Positions 5,263 to 21,219 of a stretch of 64,000 bases of DNA are shown here, one piece after another. The DNA is from Dictyostelium discoideum (taxonomy: Eukaryota), in contig CM000151.3 in NCBI GenBank assembly GCA_000004695.1, positions 5,024,001 to 5,088,000 on the forward strand, given 5' to 3'. The position numbers and the translations under genes were made by a program. Numbering within the stretch: position 1 is the stretch's first letter; each line of letters starts with the position of its first letter. The notes below the pieces were generated by a model, which saw only the letters and a program-made list of their open reading frames with translations, was not told where the DNA came from and ran no database searches.

Positions 5263-6186
5263 ATGAATAAATTATTTAAAATAGTAACAATATTATTAAT
5301 TTTAGTAAATATTATTTATTGTAATGAAAAATATTATTTTAAAATTAGTTGGAGTGGTATTAAATGTTTAAATAAACAAGAAAATTCATGTAATCAATAT
5401 AGTATTGAAAAAATTAATAATAAAACTCAACAACAACAATTATTATTAAATAAAATATCAATTAATAAATTAATAGTAAATGAAAAATCGCCATTATCAA
5501 AAATTAAACATTTCTTTATAAATAAAGAATCAAATAATATAATTGTGTATGGTAGTATTGTGAAGAATATCAATGGAAATGATTTAAATGTTATTAGAGT
5601 TTATAAACAGTTGCCATTAGGTAATAAAATTGAAATTACTGATAAATATTATACATTAAATAATTCGAATTTCCCTTGTTTGAATAGAACCAATAATGGA
5701 GGGAAACCATGTTATCAATTAATATCAACATTGGTTAATTATAATAATAATTATAATAATTATTTAATTTCAAAGATAATTTATCCATTTCAAGAAAATG
5801 TTGGTAAATATTTTGATAACAATTGGTTAAATTATAAATCTGTAATTCAAGATCATTCAAAATTAATTGCATTGGGTACAATTAATAATAATAATGAAAT
5901 GGTTGTTTCAAATGCTTATATAAACATTCCTGATCCTATTGAAAAATGTATACCACCAAAATCAATAAAATGCAACTCACAATCAATTATTACAAATTCA
6001 AGAGATTTTAATAGATGTTTAACAAATTCAACTTGTACTCCACTTGCCTTTAATGGTAATACTACAGTAGTAATCCCCATTTACCCAACTTGTCCAAAAG
6101 GTTATTATCTTACTTTTTTTACAGGAAATAATGGTGGAAAATTAGAATTTAATTGTGATGCTAATTTTTTAACAGATACTTATTAA
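5263..6186 (+). CDS. Secreted Cys-rich protein, paralog A of a 4-member tandem family; intronless, 307 aa.
   Basis: Signal peptide MNKLFKIVTILLILVNIIYC. It shares the conserved blocks 'YYFK.xW...C..PC.QYS..K.N', 'VYKQLPLGN...TDKYY', 'NVGKYFD..WL', 'LPDPI..C', 'R..NRCLT' and 'CP.GY.L..F....GCP...CD..F' with the ORFs at 7311, 8870 and 13232. The stop is at 6184-6186. Confidence 0.75.
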   Translation: MNKLFKIVTILLILVNIIYCNEKYYFKISWSGIKCLNKQENSCNQYSIEKINNKTQQQQLLLNKISINKLIVNEKSPLSKIKHFFINKESNNIIVYGSIVKNINGNDLNVIRVYKQLPLGNKIEITDKYYTLNNSNFPCLNRTNNGGKPCYQLISTLVNYNNNYNNYLISKIIYPFQENVGKYFDNNWLNYKSVIQDHSKLIALGTINNNNEMVVSNAYINIPDPIEKCIPPKSIKCNSQSIITNSRDFNRCLTNSTCTPLAFNGNTTVVIPIYPTCPKGYYLTFFTGNNGGKLEFNCDANFLTDTY

Positions 6187-6484
6187 ATAAAATAAAATAA
6201 AATAAAATAAAATAAAATAAAAAAAAAATAAAAAAAAAATTAAAAAAAAAAAAAAAATTTAATAAATAATAAAAAAAAAATTAAATAAATAATATTAAAA
6301 AAAAAAAAAAAACCAGATAAAGAAGAAAATTAAATTAAATAAAAAAGAATAAAGAATTAAAAGAATTAAAAGAATTTAAAGAATTTAAATAATTTATTGA
6401 ATAAATTACAATTGTTTGATTATTTTAGGAAATGTTGATTCATTTTTTAAATTATTTCATCATTATAGATTATTAAAATTATTA

Positions 6485-6516
<32 letters not shown>

Positions 6517-7310
6517 CCCAAATTCAATAAAATAAAATAAAATCAAGATCTAAATCAAACCTATGATCTTTGTAAAATGGTTTTGTTTTTATTTATTTTT
6601 TTTTAACTATCTAATTTTTTTTTTTTATTTATTTTTTTTTATTTTTTTTTTTGTATTTTCCAAATTAAAATGTTTAAAGATGCTGACATTTATTAACATT
6701 AATTTAATAATTAAGTGAAAGATTTAATTTTTATTTAATTTTTATTTTTTTTTTATTTTTTTTATTTTTTTTTTTTTCAAAGATTATTAATATGTAACCA
6801 CAACTTGTATTTTTTATTTGAAAAAAAAAAGGACAAATATAGATTTTTTTTTTAAAAAAAATATCCAGTTTTTATGTCATATTAAATTGAACTCTATTAC
6901 ACTTTTATAAATAGGGGTGGTGGGGTTGGAAAATACTATCCACTAAAAAAAAAATGTTTTAAAAAACGGTTTTTTTTTTTATTTCTTAATAGAGACTTTC
7001 TGAAAAAAGTCAATTCAATGATATATGGTTATACTATAAGGCCATATTAAATTAAAAAAAAAAAAAAAAAAATAAAAATATAATTTAATGAGGAATTATA
7101 TATATATTTTTTTTTTTTAATAATTAAATTTTTATTTTTTTTTTTATTTTTTTTTTTATTTTTTTTTTTTAAAGTTCTCCTATAAAAGTGTTAAATTTTT
7201 TTTTTTTATTATAAAACATTTTCATTTAATTTAATAAACAAATAAACAAACAAAGCAAACAGACAATATATAAAATAAATAAATAAAATTTTATATAAAT
7301 AAAAAAAAAA

Positions 7311-8265
7311 ATGATAAAATTATTTTGTATATCAGCAATATTGTTTATATTCATTTTTTCACTTGGTGAAAGTACATTGATTAGACCAAATTTTTATTAT
7401 AGAATTGATTGGGAAAACATAAATTGTATTAGAGCTCCATGTCCACAATATTCAGCACAAAAAGTCAATACAAATGAAAATTCAACTGCAATTTTAAGTT
7501 TCATTTACCCAGATGGCTATAATAAATCATACCTTTTTTCTGAAGAGGCCAGATCTCTCATTATTTTTGGTTCTATCCAACCAAACCCAAATTTCCCAAC
7601 TGAAGCAAAAGATTTAAAAGTTGTAAGAGTTTATAAATCATTACCATTAGGTAACCCAGCATCAGCAACTGATAAATATTATATTTTTGGTGATAATGGT
7701 ATGTGTTTCATTTTTTTAAAATTATTATTATTATTATTATTATTATTATTTTTATAGAATAAATTATTAATATTTTTTTATTTTAAAATTAGGTGTCAGA
7801 TGTGTCACTACCCCATGTGCATCAACAGATGCAGTTTTATTGAATATCCGTACTAAACAAACTGTTAGTGATATACTCATGCCATATTCAAAGAACGTTG
7901 GTAAATATTTTGATTCTGCATGGTTAGGATCTAAAACAGTTAGATCAGATGACTATGGTTTAATCGGTCAAGGTACATTCAGTAGTGGAAAAATTACAAT
8001 ATCAAATGCTTTCATTCATTTACCAGATCCAATTGGTAAATGTGATTCATTGCCATTATTAAAATGTCCAGGTGGTTCGATTATGACATACTCTCGTAAT
8101 GAAAATCGTTGTTTAGCTTCTCCAACTTGCACTCAATCTTCATTCTGTACCTTGGGTATGCCACTTTGTCCAGCAGGTTATCGTTTAGATCAATTCAGAG
8201 CAACTGAAGCAAATGGATGTCCAAAATATTATTGTGATCCAACCTTTGTTTGTAAAACACATTAA
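7311..8265 (+). CDS. Secreted Cys-rich protein, paralog B; 2 exons: 7311..7698 and 7793..8265.
   Basis: Donor GTATGT at 7699 directly after '...TDKYYIFGDNG' (phase 1). Acceptor aattag at 7791-7792. Exon 2 begins 'VRCVTTPCAS...' and ends '...GCPKYYCDPTFVCKTH*'. Confidence 0.75.
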
Positions 8266-8869
8266 TTTCTTTTTTTGTTAATTTTCTAAACAATTGTAAA
8301 AAAAAAAAAAATAAAAAAAAAATAAACACCTCCTTTTTTATTATTAATTTTTTATTTTATTTTCAAAAGATTATAAATATTATTAATTGTTAATCACAAT
8401 TTTAAAAATTTTTTAATAATAATTTTATTTTCTTGAATTATTATTTTTTTTTTTAATAATCCTAAAATTAAAATAATTCAATTGGTATTTTATAAAATAT
8501 TGTAAATTCCAATTATTCAATAATTGTATACAATAGCCCAATAATTTACCTAATTTGGTACAATCTACAAATTTAAAAAATCACCCAAAATATTAAATTA
8601 TAACAATAGATATCAGAATTACTTCAATGATAATAAAAATATTCAGTTTTTAATTGAATTTTTATTTTTTATTTATTTTAAATTTAATAAAATTTTTTAT
8701 TTTTATTTTTTATCATTATTATTTTTTTTTTTTATTTTTTTTTTTTTTTTCAAAAAATAAATATAAATAATAGTTTTTTTTTTTATTTTTTATTTGAATT
8801 TTATTATTAAAATTATAAAATTAGTATATAATAATAATAATAACAATAATAATTAAAATAATTAAAATA

Positions 8870-9836
8870 ATGATTAAAAATTATAAATTACTTTTATTTA
8901 CAACATTCACTTTATTTTTTATTACATTTGTAAGTGGTAGTAGTATTTTAAAAGCAAACTTTTATTATAAAGTTGATTGGGAAAATGTTCAATGTTTCGT
9001 TCCACCATGTCCAAAATACACAATTCAAAAATTAAATACAAATGAAAAATCACAAAAAATTTTAGATTTCATTTTCCCAAATGGTTTAAATAAAACAACA
9101 CTTTTGGGTGATGAATCTAAAACTCTTATAGTTTTAGGTACCACTCAACCAAGTTCAAAATTCCCAAATAATGCAACTGATTTCCTTGTTACCAGAGTAT
9201 ATAAATCATTACCATTAGGTAATAAACAAACTTCAACTGATAAATATTATATGTTTGGTGATAATGGTAATTTTTAATTTATTTAATATTTATTTTTTTT
9301 TTTTAAAATTTATTAATATTTATTAATATTTATTAATATTTATTAATATTTATTTATTTATAGGAACAAGATGTAAGACATCACCATGTCCAAATATTGT
9401 TGCAGCTTTATTAAATGTACATAGTCAGGAAATAATAAATACAATTAGTCAACCATATGAGAAAAATGTAGGATTTTTAGATTCAGTTTGGTTAAGTTCA
9501 AAAAATATTAGATCTGATGATTTTGGTTTAATTGGACAAGGAACAATTAAAAATGGAGTTATTTCAATTTCAAATTCATTCATTTATTTACCAGATCCAC
9601 CAATAAAATGTCCAGAACTTCCATTATTGAAGTGTGTTGAAGGTAATTCCATGACCTATTCTCGTGATGAAAATCGTTGTCTTGTCTCACCAAGATGTAC
9701 TAAATTTGGTGTTTGCACTCTAAGTATTCCACTTTGTAATAAAGGTTATCGTCTCGTTTCTTTCCCATCAACTGAATTAAATGGTTGTCCAAAATTCTTC
9801 TGTGATCCAGAATTTGTTAATAAAACTCATAAATAA
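8870..9836 (+). CDS. Secreted Cys-rich protein, paralog C; 2 exons: 8870..9266 and 9364..9836.
   Basis: Donor GTAATT at 9267 after '...DKYYMFGDNG' (phase 1, same position as paralogs B and D). Acceptor tatag at 9361-9363. The intron contains a 10-mer (tattaatatt) repeated about 4.5 times. Exon 2 reads 'TRCKTSPCPN...GCPKFFCDPEFVNKTHK*'. Confidence 0.75.
9311..9356. repeat. Tandem 10-mer (tattaatatt) x ~4.5 within the intron of paralog C.
   Basis: Direct reading. Confidence 0.8.
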
Positions 9837-9895
9837 ATACACTACCATTATTCCATTTGTTCACATCTTTTTTTATTTATTTATTTTTTATTTTA

Positions 9896-10041
9896 TTAAT
9901 TTTTAATTAATTGATCTATTTTAATAATCATAGAAACTGTATCAATAATCATTTTTAACATTATTTCTTTTCCTTTTAATGATTCAATAACTCCTAAATC
10001 TATCATATTACATAATTTACCATTTTCTAAATTAATTGAAA

Positions 10042-10083
<42 letters not shown>

Positions 10084-10426
10084 GAATTGATTTTAAATGT
10101 TGAAATAATATTATGGAGTCGAAACCAGCATTACTAATCAATAGTTTTGGTATTATTTCTAAAGATTTTGAAAATGCTTTTATACTATTCATATATTTAA
10201 TAATATCTTGTGGTTTTTCATTTTTCATTAATTCTTTAAACTTATCACTCTTTATAAATTTTTCTAATTCAACCGATAACATTATTTCATTTGAGCCACC
10301 ACCTGCAATAACCTTTTTACTTTCAACAATTAATGATAATATTGAAATTGAATCATTTAATGACTGTGTGTATATAATATATATTTGAAAGAATTTAAAA
10401 AGTAGTAATTAATTAATATATTATTT

Positions 10427-10488
<62 letters not shown>

Positions 10489-12134
10489 ATCTCTTACCCT
10501 TTGAACTTCTTCAATAATGAATATCGAAGGTGCTTTTAATAAAAATGTACATATTTTACAATTATTATTTTTAATCTCTATGTAATATTCTGATTGTTTT
10601 TCAAATAAAATATTTAAATTACAATTACCAAAAATACTACCACCACTACTGCTACTATTTTTAGTGATATTTGATGTAATTGAATTTAAAATTACTGAAG
10701 AATTTGTAACTTGTTGAATATTAAATAATTGATTATTATCTAGATTAAAAATTGTTTTTATATTATTATCTTGTAATAATTTCAAACAAGATAATGATAT
10801 TCTTTTACTTGAAAAAATTATAATATTATTATTATTATTGCAAGTTGTATTTTGTTTTTTTAAATTATCAATAAATTCTTTTGCCTGTTTAATTTCCAAT
10901 TGTCTTTTTTCATTTTCAATCATTTCTCTTTTCTATAAAAAAATAAAATAAAATAAAATAAAATAATATTACTTTTAGTTAATTATTTTTATTATTATCA
11001 TTATCATCTAATTTTTTTTTTTTTAAAAAAAAAATACAAACATTAAAATTTAAATTACTATATTGAATAAGTTTAAAAGAATTTTCATCAATATATCCAA
11101 TATCAAAATTAATTAAAACTACATTAAAAGTTAAAGCTAGTGATGGTGATGATGAAATTTCATTATTATTATTATTATTATTAATTGAAATTAAATTTGA
11201 ATAATTTAAATTTAGTGGTAATATTATACCTCTAATTAATTTACTTGATGATATATTATTACCTAATAATTTAATATATTTTACATTTGATTGAATATTA
11301 TCAAATACTCTAATTTTATCGATTTTATCACCATCAAAACCATTATCATCATCATCATCATCATTATCATCATTATGTTTAACTATCTCTTTAATTATTG
11401 ATATTGCTTCAAAACAATATCTTGTAAACTGTTTTACATAGCTATTTAATATTTTTGATGATAATGAAGTTGATATAATTTGTTCAAGTATTTTAATTGT
11501 TTCATATTCGCTACCACTATTATTATTATTATTAATAATATTAAAATTATTTGATAATAAATCATTTGTTATTGATAATTCAATAGAATTTGAGTTTAAT
11601 AATAATTTAGATTGTTCATATGCTATGGTGAATGCTTTAATGATTAAATTTGGATGATAGTTTCTGATTAATAGTTTTTCTGATTCTTTTAATAATTTAC
11701 AAGCTAAAATAACTCCAGATGTAGTACCATCACCTATTTTTGTCTGAATGAATGTAGTACATAATTACAATTAATTAGTATATATTTTTTAAAAATATGA
11801 ATAAAATACACAAGTATTGTGTACACAATTTTATGGTTTTTTTTTTATTTTTTTTTATTCAAATATTAGTAATATAAAAAATACATACATCAATTGAATT
11901 TGATAATTGTTGTAATATAATACCTAATGGATGTGAAATAGGTAATGATTTCATGATAGTTGCACCATCATTTGTTATTATCAAATCATCAGTATCGAGT
12001 TGTTGACTTTCATTTTTTTCAAATGTTTTACTCTTTTGTATATTCACAATCACTTTATCTAATCCTTTTGGTCCTAGTGATGTTGATAATATTTTAAATA
12101 TTGCATGAACTGCTGTGAATTCTAATTGTTTCAT
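9896..12134 (-). CDS. Highly divergent TCP-1/cpn60-family (CCT-like group II chaperonin) protein, 4 exons: 12134..11889, 11743..11042, 10932..10498 and 10363..9896 on the minus strand.
   Basis: All four equatorial ATP-binding motifs are present: 'LGPKGLDKVIV', 'ITNDGATIM', 'IGDGTTSGVILA' (at the start of exon 2, which has no ATG and so is absent from the ORF track) and 'AGGGSNEIMLS' (start of exon 4). The C-terminus '...MIIKIDQLIKN' is CCT-like. The middle (apical) region is replaced by N/D-rich low complexity. Donors are GTATGT at 11888, GTTTGT at 11041 (weak) and GTAAGA at 10497. Acceptors are ..ttcag, ..tatag and ..cacag. All exons are phase 0. Confidence 0.6.
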
Positions 12135-13104
12135 TAAATCTCTCCCATTTGAATATCTGATTGATCAGAGTTAAAAATAAAAAAAATAAAAAAAATAAAA
12201 AAAAAAAATTTGAAAAGTCATTTCACAAAAACAAAAAAAAAAAAAAAAAACTTTTTTATTTTGCCATAATCAATTTTGTTTATTTTTAATGTAATTTTTT
12301 GATTTTGTTGATGGTTTTTTAATGGTTATACTTGAATTAATAATAATAAAAGAATAAATAAAAAAAATTAATATGTTAATTAAAAATTAATCAAAAACCA
12401 AAATAATAATAATTAGGAAATCAAATAATTTTGATTATTAACCCTTTACACCATTGTCTAAATTACAATACACCTGCAAATGTATCAAAAATAAAATAAA
12501 ATAAAATAAAATAAAATAAAACAAAATAAATTAAATTAAATTAAAAAATAGTTTTCAAAGAAATAATATTTTCTTAAGTAAAAATTATGTATTAAAGAAT
12601 GTTGGTAAATTGAAAAAAAAAAAAAAAAAAAATTTGGAAAAAAAAAAAACTAACTAGTTAGTTTTTTTTTTTTCCAAACCAATCCATTAATTTAAAATCT
12701 TGGGATAATAAAAATCCCCCCAAAAAAAAGATCAATACTATCGTTTGTTTATAATGTTTAATCAAAATTGTATAGGTTGAATATAAAAAAAAGAAAATTA
12801 AAAGAAAAAAAAACATTTTATTATTTATTATAAAATAAATTTAATTTTGACCAATCAAAAAAAAAAAAAAGATTTTTGTTGAAAATTTTTAAAAAAAAAG
12901 TTAAAATAATAGATGCGAATATTTGCATCTTCAACCTCTAAAAAAAAACCCTTTGACTAAGATCCTACCAAATTCATATTATAATTCCATTAAAAAAAAA
13001 ATAATAATAAAAAAAATAGTAAAAGTTTATTTTAAATTTCCTTTCTAATAAATTGATATGATTTTTTATTTAAAATTATTTTTTTAGTTTTTTTGAATTA
13101 ATTT

Positions 13105-13141
<37 letters not shown>

Positions 13142-13231
13142 CCTAAAAGTATAAATAGAATATAAAATAAATTTTATTTTATAATTTAAATTTTAATATT
13201 TAAAAACAATAATAAAAAAAAAAAAAAGAAA
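12135..13231. promoter_or_regulatory. Divergent AT-rich promoter region between the CCT-like gene (minus) and paralog D (plus). It contains a 20-nt near-palindrome at 12911-12930.
   Basis: The two genes are head-to-head. The palindrome is 'agatgcGaatattTgcatct', with only a single symmetric mismatch pair. Oligo(dT)/(dA) tracts of Dictyostelium-promoter type are present. Confidence 0.3.
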
Positions 13232-14183
13232 ATGTTAAAAAATACATTTATTACTTTAATCTTTACAATTATTTCAATTTCAATTTGTTTTGGTAGTCAA
13301 TTACCAACAAACTATTATTTCAAAGTTACCCATGTTCCAATTTATTGTATTACCACACCGTGCAGTCAATACCGTGTCTATAAGGTAAATACTCAAGATC
13401 CAGAGATTGTTATTGAAAATTTCGTTTTCCCAAATGGAGTTGAACAAAACTATTTCTCACTTCAAGAAGCCAATACTGCTATCCTTTATGGTACTATCAT
13501 TGCAAACAGAAATGGTTACAATGTAAATGATTTTAAAGTAAAAAGAGTTTATAAACAACTTCCACAAGGTAATGCTTTAACATCAACTGATAAATATTAT
13601 ATGTTTGCTTCATCAGGTAATTATTATTATTATTTTTATAATTATTATATATTATCCAATTTTAATAATTATTAATTGTTTTTTTTTTTTAATTTTACCA
13701 ACAGGTATTGTTTGCATTACAACACCATGCCCATCAGTTTCAGCAATTTTATTAAATATTGATAATGCTGCAACCAATGTTAATGATGTTAAGCAACCAT
13801 ATGAAAGTAATGTACCACTTTTCGATAGCAATTGGTTATTCCAAAAGCAATTTGAGTCAGAATCTAACAGATTGATTGGTGTTGGTACAATTAATAGTCA
13901 AGGTGAAGTGATTGTTTCTTCTTCTTTTGTAAGATTACCAGATCCAATTTCAAATTGTCCAGCATTACCATTATTAAAATGTCAAGGTGGTCATGTTACA
14001 GTTTACGAAAGAGATTCAAATCGTTGTTTAACAAATCCACAATGTTCAAATGATAATGACACTCGTGCTTGTATCCTTTCAATTCCAACCTGCTCAACTG
14101 GTTATGATTTAGTATCTTATACTTCTATTTCAACTTGTCCAGCATACAACTGTGATGCTTATTTCTTAACAAAAACTTATTGA
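13232..14183 (+). CDS. Secreted Cys-rich protein, paralog D; 2 exons: 13232..13616 and 13705..14183.
   Basis: Signal peptide MLKNTFITLIFTIISISICFG. Donor GTAATT at 13617 after '...DKYYMFASSG' (phase 1). Acceptor ..caacag at 13703-13704. Exon 2 reads 'IVCITTPCPS...CPAYNCDAYFLTKTY*'. Confidence 0.75.
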
Positions 14184-14289: not shown

Positions 14290-14290
<1 letters not shown>

Positions 14291-14368
<78 letters not shown>

Positions 14369-14370
14369 AT
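14291..14370. repeat. (AAAT)n microsatellite, about 20 copies, in the convergent 3' intergenic region between paralog D and top3.
   Basis: Direct reading gives aaataaataaat... across 80 nt. Confidence 0.9.
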
Positions 14371-14465: not shown

Positions 14466-14633
14466 TTAAAAAATAAAATTATTATTATTACGATCTGAAT
14501 TTCTATTGTTATTATTAAAATTATTATTAGATGCTGTAAAAGTTCTATGTTGAGTTGTTGTTCTAGTTGTTCTAGTTGTTATTGGTCTTGCGCTATTTGT
14601 GTTATTATTGTTATTATTTCTATTATAATTTGT

Positions 14634-14674
<41 letters not shown>

Positions 14675-16938
14675 TACCAGTTGCTAAATTGCAATTAAAT
14701 GTACATTGAAAACAATGAAATGGTTTTTTATGAATTGGGTCAGGTGGAGAATTTCTACATTTTGGACAAATTGTATAACTTTTATCGTTTATAGGATTTC
14801 TTACACTAAGAACTTGATATTGACAAATTGGACAATTTTGTGGTACACCCATTGAAGTTACCAATTGAGAGATATCACCATTCTTTGGTAAATCAAAAGT
14901 ATCAATACATTGAGGACAAAATAAAATTCTTTTTGGTGCTTCTGGATTTTGATCAGATTTATATTGCATTTTACCATTACATTTACCACAACGTGAGAAT
15001 TGAGAAACCAAAACACGAAATTCACCACCTTTTGGATCGGCAGGTTCATAATATTCTCTAAATGATCTATCGAAACAATTTATATTTTGATTTGCCAATT
15101 GATAAAGTTGTTTATACTTTTCAATGGTTGATAAGAGTACTTCTTGTTTAGTTTTTTGACCTCTACTAATTTTATCTACATCAGCTTCGATTGCAGCTCT
15201 AAGATTTGGTTTTGAAAATTCAAATCCCATTAATTCATAACTTGCAACCAATGATACACCTAAATTTGAGGGAACAAATTGATTACTTTCATTCTTTTTA
15301 ACATAAAAACGATCTTGAATAGTTTGAATATGAGTTGCCATCGTTGCATCTGTACCGATTTTATTATTATCCATGGCTGTCAATAGTTCTGCCTCTGTTA
15401 TATAATGAGGTGCAACGGTTGTACCTTTTGTAAGATCAATTCTTTTTGGTGTAAATCTTTCACCTTTTTGATAGGTTGGTATTAGTTTATCATTACGTTT
15501 ATCGAATGGATAAACTTCAAGATAACCCAATTTCAAAACCATTGTACCAGTCTCTGAAAATCTTTCACCCTGAATATCGATGGTAACCGTTGTATTTGCA
15601 AATACAGATTCCTCAGAACAACATGCTAAAAATCTACGAGTAATGAAATCATAAATCTTTTTCAAATTACCCGATAAACCAGTGGCTGATGAAGTTGGAT
15701 GAATTGGTGGATGTGAATTATCATTGTTTTTACCTGATTTTGGATAAACAAATTGATTGTTATTAATTAATCTACTTGCATAAGCACCCCATTCAGGATT
15801 TGATGCTTGGTTACCAATCAAACCTTTTAAATCGGTTCCTGCTTGAAATGAATCTGTCTCTGTTCTTGGATAACTAATTAAGCCTTTTGTATAAAGTTCC
15901 TCTGCATATTGCATAGTTTGAACTGATGAAATTCTTAACTTTTTCGATGCCGCCTTTTGAAGTTCAATCGTTGTCAAAGGTACAGGTCTATATCTACTCT
16001 CTTTTGAAGTAACATCAACAACCGTTGCCTCTGTATTATCTAAACATTTCTCATACAATATAAATGCAGCTGTATAATCAAACAAACGATTTCTACACCA
16101 TGAAAATGTAACAGGTATCATCTTACCACTACTAGTATCCATTTTTTCATGAACCACTGATAAATGCCAAAAATCCTCTGGTTTAAAATTTACAATTCTA
16201 AAATATCTTTCAACTACAAATCCTAAAGTTGGAAATTGGCATGGTCCATAACTAATAATTTCTTTACCACTTGAATTATTATTACTATTATTAAGTATAT
16301 TACCATTTGCTGGTGTAGTAGTCTTTGGTTGATTATCACTATTTGAAATGATTTTAAATTTCTTTAAATATAAAGTTTGAAATCTTGTGAAAGCAGCACC
16401 AATTCTAAGATCAATCTCCATTCTAGTATCAACTGCAATTGAATCTTTTTCATTTGGTTTTGCAAGGTTTTTACAAGCTCTATCAATTTCTCTTGGAATG
16501 ATTGCAGAGAAATGTGCTCTATAAAATTCAAATTTCTTTTTAGCATTTTTACAAACTTCCAATACTTCAAATGCAATATTTTCACCCTCTCTATCACAAT
16601 CTAACCAAAGAATTAATATATCAGCTTTCTTTATCTCTCTTTCCAATGTTTTCTTTAATGGTTCTTTATCTGATGGTACTGTTTTTCTTATTGGTGCATC
16701 AAATAATTGAATTGGATCGCATGATGCCCATGGTTTAAATTGTTCAACTACATCAATCTCCATTAAATGACCTGTAACTGATGTGAATGTCATTTCGCAA
16801 TCATTAAAATTCAATATATTATATTTAAAATCCCAAAGTTTATTATATTTTGAAAATCCTTCTCTCTTTTTTTTAAATAATAAAAATGAATAAAATAAAA
16901 AAAATAAAATAAAATGTTTGTAAATAATTAATAATTTT

Positions 16939-20214: not shown

Positions 20215-21219
20215 TATATAAAGTCAAGAGATCATTTCTTGTATTCAACATTAGAAAGAAATAATTGGAGTTTAGATGCATCACTTACAATTCTTCAAAG
20301 AAGACATGAATACTTGGAAGCAGAACAATACCAAATCGAAAGAAAATTAGAAGAGAACCGTTTAAAGAAAGAACGTGAACAAAGAGAACGTGAAAGAGAA
20401 TTAAGATTAATTGCACAAGTTAGAGATATTTTCGGTAGTAAATTCACAGATCATCAAATTCAACGTGCACTCTATGACAATCGTAATAATGTAGAGTCAA
20501 CAATTAACCATTTCATGAGAGAAATTGACCAAGAACAATATCGTGAAAGACAAAGAAGACAACAAAGATTGGATGAAGAGGATCGTTTACAACGTCAACG
20601 TGAACGTGATGAATATGAAAGACGTGAAAGAAACAAAAAAAGAGTCAATGACCTCTTATTAGAAATTAAATACTCTTCACCAGAACAAAAAAGACAATTG
20701 GCTCAATCCAAATTGTTCCAAGATGTTTTAAAAGATTTCGATCATCTCACTGTTTTTGATCAACCACCACCACCACAAATTAAAACAATTTATGTCCCAG
20801 TACCACAACCAATTCCACAACCAAGATATGTTAATAATTTCCCAACAACACCAACAATGCCATCATTTTCACCACCAGACTATAATTCCTCAATGTTTAA
20901 TAATGGTAATAAACCACCAACCACCACTACCACCACCACTTCAAATCAACCATTCCAAAATTTAGACCCATTTAATAATACTGCAATTACTCCATTTTCA
21001 ACAAATCCATTCTTTGTTGATCAAAATGTAAGTCAAGGTTTAATGAAAACTAGACCAGAAGAAGAATCTGCTAGAAAATTAAAAGAATTATTCCCAAACA
21101 CCTCTGATGAAGTAGTTAGATATGTTTTATTATCAACCGATAATAATATGTCTTTGGCAATCCAAAATCTTTTGGATATCACCATCAAAGTTGAAAATTC
21201 TAAAAACGCTTCAAATTAA
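20064..21219 (+). CDS. CUE-domain protein (ubiquitin-binding, 3 CUE domains), 2 exons: 20064..20129 and 20224..21219.
   Basis: Exon 1 'MKISPYEKEQKINQVLSMFPLL' carries the CUE 'MFP' motif; donor GTAAGT at 20130. Acceptor ..ataaag at 20222-20223. Exon 2 contains two further CUE-like blocks, 'VRDIFGSKFTDHQIQRALYDNRNNVESTINHF' and 'LKELFPNTSDEVVRYVLLSTDNNMSLAIQNLLD', separated by an R/E/Q coiled-coil and Pro-rich linker. Confidence 0.75.

Follow-up and report, generated by a model that had tools for sequence, protein, structure and literature searches.

A 64,000-nucleotide (nt) stretch of chromosome 2 of Dictyostelium discoideum AX4 (GenBank assembly GCA_000004695.1, contig CM000151.3, positions 5,024,001 to 5,088,000 of the forward strand), here called the window, carries four genes on one strand for cysteine-rich proteins with predicted secretion signals. 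On balance, our analysis favors the view that these genes, designated copies A, B, C, and D in order of position, are a tandem expansion of the DUF6748 family (Pfam PF20533) specific to the D. discoideum lineage. The function that we consider most likely for their products, with modest confidence, is that of a structural or ligand-binding component of the extracellular matrix or wall of the stalk and cup. Copy A is the only one of the four without an intron, and it probably lost that intron in situ. Positions given below are counted from the first letter of the window.

Four tandem paralogs and their shared intron

The translations of all four genes are, letter for letter, public proteins of D. 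discoideum AX4 (four of four). The gene models, with lengths in amino acids (aa), are as follows.

5263 to 6186, + strand: copy A (DDB_G0275251, Q86I10), intronless coding sequence (CDS), 307 aa; continuous open reading frame (ORF) and exact match to a public protein
7311 to 7698 joined to 7793 to 8265, + strand: copy B (DDB_G0275253, Q8T2U1), 286 aa; exact match to a public protein
7311 to 7698, + strand: copy B exon 1, predicted signal peptide and beta-barrel repeat 1; the last base is base 1 of the Gly130 codon
7699 to 7792, + strand: copy B intron, 94 nt, phase 1, GTATGT..TTAG, 6% G+C
7793 to 8265, + strand: copy B exon 2, beta-barrel repeat 2 (aa ~130 to 207) and 8-Cys domain (aa 205 to 286, positions 8017 to 8262)
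8870 to 9266 joined to 9364 to 9836, + strand: copy C (DDB_G0275255, Q8T2U0), 289 aa; exact match to a public protein
9267 to 9363, + strand: copy C intron, 97 nt, phase 1, 2% G+C
13232 to 13616 joined to 13705 to 14183, + strand: copy D (DDB_G0275111, Q8T2T8), 287 aa; exact match to a public protein
13617 to 13704, + strand: copy D intron, 88 nt, phase 1, 9% G+C

A first-pass annotation of this DNA had read four same-strand tandem paralogs starting at positions 5263, 7311, 8870, and 13232, and both the gene models and full-length BLASTP comparisons agree with it. Pairwise alignments spanned the full length of all four proteins, with E values from 1e-37 to 1e-124. Identity was 56 to 58% between copies B and C, 42% between B and D, and 43 to 44% between C and D, while copy A shared 34 to 35% with each of the other three (E values of 1e-37 to 1e-53). 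No fifth copy of the family was found within the 64-kb window by tblastn. The genes and their family are already catalogued, the former as annotated hypothetical proteins and the latter as Pfam DUF6748, and the array is of an ordinary and known kind of tandem family.

Copies B, C, and D each contain a single intron, and the earlier statement that it interrupts the same codon in phase 1 in three of the four copies was borne out by the exon 1 lengths (388, 397, and 385 nt, respectively, giving phase 1 in all three) and by the alignment of the split codon. This codon specifies an aligned Gly directly before an x-x-C-x-T-x-P-C motif and is cut after its first base. The introns have GT..AG ends and a G+C content of 2 to 9%, compared to 28 to 32% in the exons (the window as a whole has 20.8%); their lengths are never a multiple of 3, and reading through them encounters an in-frame stop in each case. 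As had also been described, copy A is a continuous, intronless ORF (5263 to 6186) that is divergent from the other copies.

Family membership and protein architecture

The first-pass annotation could not place the proteins in a known family. A Pfam profile search did so for three of them: PF20533 scored 63.7, 45.6, and 53.7 bits for copies B, C, and D, respectively, against a gathering score of 27, and UniProt labels B and D as "DUF6748 domain-containing protein." NCBIfam has no model for the DUF6748 family. Copy A gave no PF20533 match at an E value of ≤1 in the Pfam scan. A family profile built without A-lineage sequences nevertheless matched copy A over its full length (178 bits; E value of 1e-50), and a bacteria-only profile matched it with 78 bits and an E value of 3e-20, compared to about 1e-41 for copies B, C, and D. 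Judged by these profiles, copy A is a clear member of the family despite being missed by the Pfam model.

The N-termini of copies A to D are hydrophobic, with Kyte-Doolittle 12-residue maxima of 2.4 to 3.2, a measure of hydropathy only; by the same measure, no later transmembrane-like segment was found. Moreover, copy C is flagged as signal peptide bearing in a published table (Banu et al. 2026, PMC12821622). Thus, the four proteins are predicted to be directed into the secretory pathway by an N-terminal signal peptide, in keeping with the original description of secreted, Cys-rich products.

In each protein, the predicted signal peptide is followed by two homologous beta-barrel repeats in tandem and then, at the C-terminus, by the 8-Cys domain. 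In copy B, residues ~35 to 112 are homologous to residues ~129 to 207 (hhalign of repeat 1 against repeat 2; probability of 95%, E value of 2.6e-8). Each repeat opens with a Cys-x3/4-(Pro)-Cys motif and has a conserved Asn 14 residues past the first Cys; these positions, C39/C44/N53 and C133/C138/N147, are kept in 88 to 94% of 215 members. Copy A retains the Cys pairs of the repeats with wider spacing. The intron shared by copies B, C, and D sits exactly at the junction between the two repeats. The C-terminal domain follows the spacing C-x7-C-x14-C-x5-C-x5-C-x6-C-x12-16-C-x4-C and has all eight cysteines in 221 of 242 members, including B, C, and D, while copy A and its two orthologs keep six of the eight, the same two being lost in each. 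The first-pass annotation had spoken of two conserved Cys-rich modules; conserved modules are indeed present, but they are better counted as two homologous repeats plus a separate 8-Cys domain. The PF20533 model (196 positions) spans both repeats of B, C, and D and does not include the 8-Cys domain, which itself matched no Pfam family, including known small Cys-rich domains such as Kazal, TIL, and EGF-like.

The AlphaFold2 model comprises two small beta-barrels and a domain of two beta-hairpins (pLDDT of 79, pTM of 0.77), and the C-terminal domain modeled alone reached a pLDDT of 87. Structure prediction thus yielded a domain layout but no assignment to a described fold: a Foldseek search of the Protein Data Bank (PDB) returned nothing at an E value of <0.1, and a sequence profile search of the PDB had no match. 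The small beta-barrels of OB-fold proteins (cold-shock domains, SSB/PriB, and CsaA) scored at the border of noise, with 4 to 9% identity; these are cytoplasmic nucleic acid binders, whereas copies A to D are predicted to be secreted and disulfide bonded. Across 215 full-length members, the columns conserved at ≥85% are 12 Cys plus N, G, P, W, R, and Y only, and at this threshold no conserved Ser, His, Asp, Glu, or Lys column was present. Because no residue of a catalytic type is conserved, the proteins are more readily seen as binding or structural proteins than as enzymes, and we infer that the four proteins are nonenzymatic, disulfide stabilized, and extracellular. Neither the internal duplication nor the unmodeled 8-Cys domain, for which the PDB searches gave no match, seems to have been described before.

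Expression and likely function

According to published data, copies B and C are strongly induced during development and enriched in prestalk and stalk cells, and copy A is expressed weakly, late, and with enrichment in cup cells. The values given here come from two data sets, Additional file 5 of Kin et al. (2018, PMC6198379) and the label-free mass spectrometry (MS) data of Banu et al. (PMC12821622), the latter with two replicates. In the former, the transcripts per million (TPM) of copy B were 339 in prespore, 1780 in prestalk, 3568 in cup, 731 in spore, 10134 in stalk, and 3.3 in vegetative cells; over the time course, the gene was induced from 8 h, rising from a TPM of 5.7 to about 1,700 to 2,300. 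Copy C showed TPM of 101 in prespore, 307 in prestalk, 251 in cup, 6.8 in spore, 784 in stalk, and 0.74 in vegetative cells, and a time course that went from 0.8 to values of 128 to 352. Copy A, which is listed on the Cup sheet, had TPM of 7.4 in prespore, 2.06 in prestalk, 7.3 in cup, 0.70 in spore, 0.79 in stalk, and 0 in vegetative cells; its time course started at 0 and then ranged from 0.35 to 37.5, with 21.7 at 20 h and 37.5 at 24 h (PMC6198379).

In the protein data (PMC12821622), copies A, B, and C all reach their highest abundance in fruiting bodies. Copy B was detected in mounds (abundances of 1.9e7 and 3.0e7), at culmination (1.4e7 and 1.1e7), and in fruiting bodies (2.8e8 and 2.4e8). 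Copy C was detected at culmination (3.4e6 and 6.4e6) and in fruiting bodies (6.4e7 and 6.5e7), with a log2 fold change of 7.6 for fruiting bodies versus other stages, and the table places it next to cotB, ecmF, and proteins that bind cellulose, adding the remark "Expressed in pstO cells." Copy A was detected in fruiting bodies only (3.9e5 and 2.2e6). None of these genes is listed in the supplements of PMC9117722. The split between stalk and cup expression among the paralogs seems not to have been described previously.

A role in the matrix or wall is suggested by the combination of a secretion signal, six predicted disulfides, the lack of a catalytic signature, and very high expression in prestalk and stalk cells and in fruiting bodies. 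Under this proposal, prestalk and stalk cells (copies B and C) and cup cells (copy A) would deposit the proteins during culmination, and the proteins would serve the matrix of the fruiting body or the cell wall either structurally or by binding a ligand, possibly a polysaccharide. The extracellular matrix proteins EcmA, EcmB, and EcmF and the spore coat protein CotB are likewise secreted, Cys rich, and induced in development; the abundance profile of the copy C protein groups with those of cotB and ecmF, and prestalk/stalk expression is as in the Ecm proteins. The likeness concerns expression and predicted location only, since there is no sequence relationship between those proteins and copies A to D. 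Nor were the repeats of matrix and spore coat proteins or cellulose-binding domains found in copies A to D, for which Pfam at an E value of ≤1 gave only DUF6748 and sub-threshold noise. Two points weigh against the proposed role: it is drawn from expression pattern, secretion signal, and cysteine content, and copy D was not found in the examined parts of either expression data set.

The main competing idea about function, which we regard as improbable, is that the proteins are secreted inhibitors or defense or antimicrobial effectors, such as protease inhibitors, that amoebae and myxobacteria, as soil predators, would use against prey or competitors. Its sole support is that a Kazal domain takes the place of the 8-Cys domain in one metagenomic family member. 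That fusion is a single protein, however, and the bacterial gene neighbors are uninformative; the 8-Cys domain has neither a sequence nor a fold match to the inhibitor families searched. Furthermore, expression in the examined data is nearly absent from feeding vegetative cells (TPM of 0 to 3.3) and peaks in stalk cells or fruiting bodies, which speaks against this idea.

Intron gain in the genus and its probable loss from copy A

To place the intron of copies B, C, and D in the history of the family, we compared gene structures among dictyostelids. The phase-1 intron at the repeat boundary occurs in copies B, C, and D of D. discoideum, copies B and C of D. citrinum, copy D of D. firmibasis, and the D. 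purpureum genes 150105 and 95133; gene 95133 additionally contains a phase-2 intron at aa 41. The A orthologs of D. citrinum and D. firmibasis lack the boundary intron, as does D. purpureum DICPUDRAFT_154923, the D ortholog linked to the topoisomerase III gene (top3; locus L006, 6001 to 6922), whose intron lies instead at aa 64 (67 nt, phase 1, 4% G+C). The intron position in the family has thus changed a second time, independently, in this D ortholog. Two genes of Polysphondylium violaceum and one of Tieghemostelium lacteum are intronless, and the introns of Cavenderia fasciculata and Acytostelium subglobosum are located at aa 39 (phase 1) and aa 136 (phase 2), respectively. Because these distant homologs are either intronless or have introns elsewhere, the repeat-boundary intron is best read as a gain within the genus Dictyostelium; consequently, whether copy A lost the intron or never had it depends on where A branches.

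Gene order bears on this point. In both D. citrinum and D. firmibasis, a beta-lactamase-family gene is followed by A, B, C, and a minus-strand gene matching the chaperonin-family gene, as in the window, and in D. firmibasis the order continues with D and top3, again as in the window. D. purpureum differs: its beta-lactamase and COMM genes are followed in this slot by just one intron-bearing gene, 150105, and an A ortholog was not found. This arrangement implies that A, B, and C derive from later tandem duplication of an intron-bearing gene. In addition, a one-residue insertion, NVG-x-(Y/L)FD, is common to A, B, and D. purpureum 95133 and 150105 and is missing from D and the outgroups. In neighbor-joining (NJ) trees, bootstrapped with uncorrected, Kimura, or gamma-corrected distances, the Dictyostelium clade including A received 92 to 99% support, and A grouped with B, C, and the D. 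purpureum pair in 65 to 77% of bootstraps under Kimura or gamma-corrected distances. The D. firmibasis annotation has one 535-aa DUF6748 model at the B/C place (locus L003, 4342 to 6805), which is probably two genes fused by the annotation.

We therefore propose the following history. The ancestral dictyostelid gene was probably intronless, and in the genus Dictyostelium a phase-1 intron would have entered it precisely where the two repeats meet. Copy D would have split from the B/C lineage before D. discoideum and D. purpureum diverged, and A, B, and C would have arisen by tandem duplication after that divergence. The intron would then have been lost from copy A, probably through a reverse-transcript-mediated event, and copy A would further have lost one Cys pair, gained low-complexity insertions, and moved to weak, late expression in cup cells. 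Several observations count against the loss: the position of A shifts with the distance correction in trees that are NJ only, the long branch of A comes out as basal in 79% of bootstraps when distances are left uncorrected, and a second intron loss is needed in the D. purpureum D ortholog. The gain of an intron at the repeat boundary and its loss or losses seem not to have been described before.

That basal placement is what would be seen if copy A had never had an intron, being the earliest-branching Dictyostelium member with the intron gained afterwards on the stem of B, C, and D. The intronless homologs of P. violaceum and T. lacteum and the different intron sites in C. fasciculata and A. 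subglobosum fit such an order of events, as does the near-equal distance of A from the other three copies. A basal position of a long branch under uncorrected distances is, however, an expected artifact, and the corrected distances nest A within the group; the insertion that A shares with B and the two D. purpureum genes and the single intron-bearing gene in the D. purpureum slot likewise argue for loss. We consider it unlikely, though still worth weighing, that copy A was intronless from the start.

Copy A is a divergent functional paralog

The first-pass annotation took the absence of the intron from copy A, and about six extra residues at the intron site, as consistent with intron loss or a retrocopy-like origin. 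Of these suggestions, intron loss is probable, and a retrocopy-like origin is the less likely of the two. The extra residues exist, but they are inserted a few codons downstream of the intron site, where they separate the two Cys of the repeat-2 motif, and they number 6, 12, and 7 in the three A orthologs. Since the site differs and the length varies among orthologs, the insertion is unrelated to the intron, and we rejected its interpretation as an intron remnant.

The retrocopy idea proposes that a processed B- or C-like mRNA was inserted beside its parent. Such an event would account for the precise absence from A of the sole intron, which B, C, D, and the syntenic gene of D. purpureum all carry, and for the different level, timing, and cell type of A expression, as a new promoter would give. 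It would also account for an A-rich tract next to the gene:

6185 to 6353, + strand: A-rich tract starting at the copy A stop codon (TRF rows)

The 150 nt after the stop codon of copy A are 78% A, a value reached by 0.19% of 150-nt windows in the 64 kb. The A orthologs of D. citrinum and D. firmibasis have 68% and 54% A after the stop codon; B, C, D, and the three genes of D. purpureum have 30 to 49%, and copy D of D. firmibasis has 54%. The tract may be a poly(A) relic or a simple terminator region; A-rich tracts are common in Dictyostelium intergenic DNA, and the observation was made post hoc. The location of A argues against insertion of a processed copy: it precedes B by 1124 nt, with both genes in one orientation, and it keeps this place in three species. 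Such a head-to-tail site fits tandem duplication and would be an improbable landing site. An origin of copy A by retrocopying thus seems to us rather doubtful, and tandem duplication followed by intron loss remains the preferred explanation.

Decay of copy A into a pseudogene is very unlikely. At 20.6%, the G+C content of its CDS is no different from the window average, two conserved Cys are missing, poly-N/Q low-complexity insertions are present, the Pfam model fails, and expression is weak, all of which could be taken as signs of decay. The ORF is nonetheless intact in three species, all three orthologs have lost one and the same Cys pair while many motifs are kept among them, and the A protein was detected in both fruiting-body MS replicates. 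The ratio of nonsynonymous to synonymous substitution rates (dN/dS) of A is 0.49 between D. discoideum and D. citrinum and 0.33 between D. discoideum and D. firmibasis, well below 1, compared to 0.20, 0.19, and 0.13 for B, C, and D, respectively. Copy A evolves about twice as fast as the other copies, under relaxed constraint but clear purifying selection. Altogether, copy A is a divergent functional paralog and not a pseudogene.

Distribution in Dictyostelia and Myxococcota

A word-indexed homolog search with copy B reached Dictyostelium species only, and a profile search was needed for distant relatives. The exhaustive profile search of 1.84 billion representatives gave 314 clusters at an E value of ≤1e-3, most of them full length, and every named match belongs to Dictyostelia or Myxococcota. 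The Dictyostelia with members are D. purpureum, D. citrinum, D. dimigraforme, D. firmibasis, P. violaceum, T. lacteum, C. fasciculata, A. subglobosum, and Synstelium polycarpum. The Myxococcota members come from metagenome-assembled genomes (MAGs) of Myxococcus, Archangium, and Myxococcaceae, and a related-locus search with the single protein P0192 returned Archangium MAGs only. The one bacterial context examined, in Archangium, contained a single-copy gene with unrelated neighbors and offered no functional clue.

The Myxococcota proteins share the three-module architecture of copies A to D over the full length, including the 8-Cys domain. They differ in having a lipobox-like N-terminus, as in lipoproteins, as opposed to the predicted classical, eukaryotic-type signal peptide of the amoebal proteins, a C-x4-CGG motif in repeat 1 where the amoebae have C-x3-PC, and an amino acid composition typical of high G+C; amoebal and bacterial members can be separated by composition and N-terminus. 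When an NJ tree is rooted with the bacterial members, those from eukaryotes group as a clade (59% bootstrap support), which would fit a single old transfer between bacteria and amoebae in either direction. A single ancient transfer is made likely by the sharing of the family with Myxococcota lipoproteins. The apparent distribution across Dictyostelia plus Myxococcota seems not to have been described before. In a search of the literature, DUF6748 and the identifiers of these genes and proteins were not found in main texts, and nothing relevant was found on gene transfer between Dictyostelium and Myxococcus.

A bolder proposal joins these observations to the expression data: DUF6748 would be confined essentially to Dictyostelia and Myxococcota, both aggregative builders of fruiting bodies, would have passed between them in one ancient transfer, and would have been recruited as a major component of the amoebal stalk and fruiting-body matrix. 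We offer this full combination as a long shot. The restriction to the two groups rests on the minority of matches that carry names.

Some members depart from the common architecture. The metagenomic or bacterial protein P0247 has two DUF6748 repeats and a Kazal domain in place of the 8-Cys domain, and P0080, of the same kind of source, has an extra C-terminal CUB domain. Long multidomain matches with SRR1 or Nuf2 (P0045 and P0097) resemble fused transcript models, and no conclusion about function was drawn from them. A second, distant dictyostelid DUF6748 subfamily resides at other loci and includes P0155 of D. dimigraforme as well as C. fasciculata sequences; P0155 was considered as a dispersed A ortholog and rejected, as it belongs to this other subfamily. 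The two C. fasciculata copies are adjacent (locus L010, 778 to 2671 and 3001 to 3946), so that tandem duplication recurs in other lineages.

Neighboring genes and other features of the window

The array is interrupted and flanked by genes of other families, of which the following were delimited.

9896 to 12134, - strand: Cpn60/TCP-1 family gene, divergent, four exons; Pfam PF00118, 260 bits; six-frame translation
14466 to 16814, - strand: topoisomerase III gene (Toprim and Topoisom_bac domains)
20239 to 21219, + strand: CUE-domain gene (cnrD-like)

The Cpn60/TCP-1 gene separates C from D, is unrelated to the DUF6748 family, and contains poly-N and poly-D tracts; its Cpn60_TCP1 match (260 bits) upholds the earlier reading of a chaperonin-like gene on the opposite strand between these two copies. 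In D. citrinum, a minus-strand gene of matching size follows C, and in D. firmibasis one stands between B/C and D. Upstream of A there is the beta-lactamase-family gene, and downstream of D comes the topoisomerase III gene. D. firmibasis keeps the order of the topoisomerase III and CUE-domain genes relative to the DUF6748 genes, and D. purpureum keeps it in part. Positions 14290 to 14370, between copy D and the topoisomerase III gene, are taken up by a perfect (TAAA)20 microsatellite. No tRNA genes were found in the 64-kb window.

Implications

The analysis attaches evidence to four "hypothetical proteins," two of which belong to the very abundant transcripts of the stalk and proteins of the fruiting body in a model organism. 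It also provides a compact and datable case of intron turnover, in which an intron gained at a repeat boundary in one genus would have been followed by at least one loss and probably two, in copy A and in the D. purpureum D ortholog. The restricted distribution, if it holds, represents a testable case of gene transfer between kingdoms tied to aggregative multicellularity. Should it prove true, and should the myxobacterial lipoproteins act in the matrix of fruiting bodies or spores, DUF6748 would be a component common to two independent origins of aggregative multicellularity.

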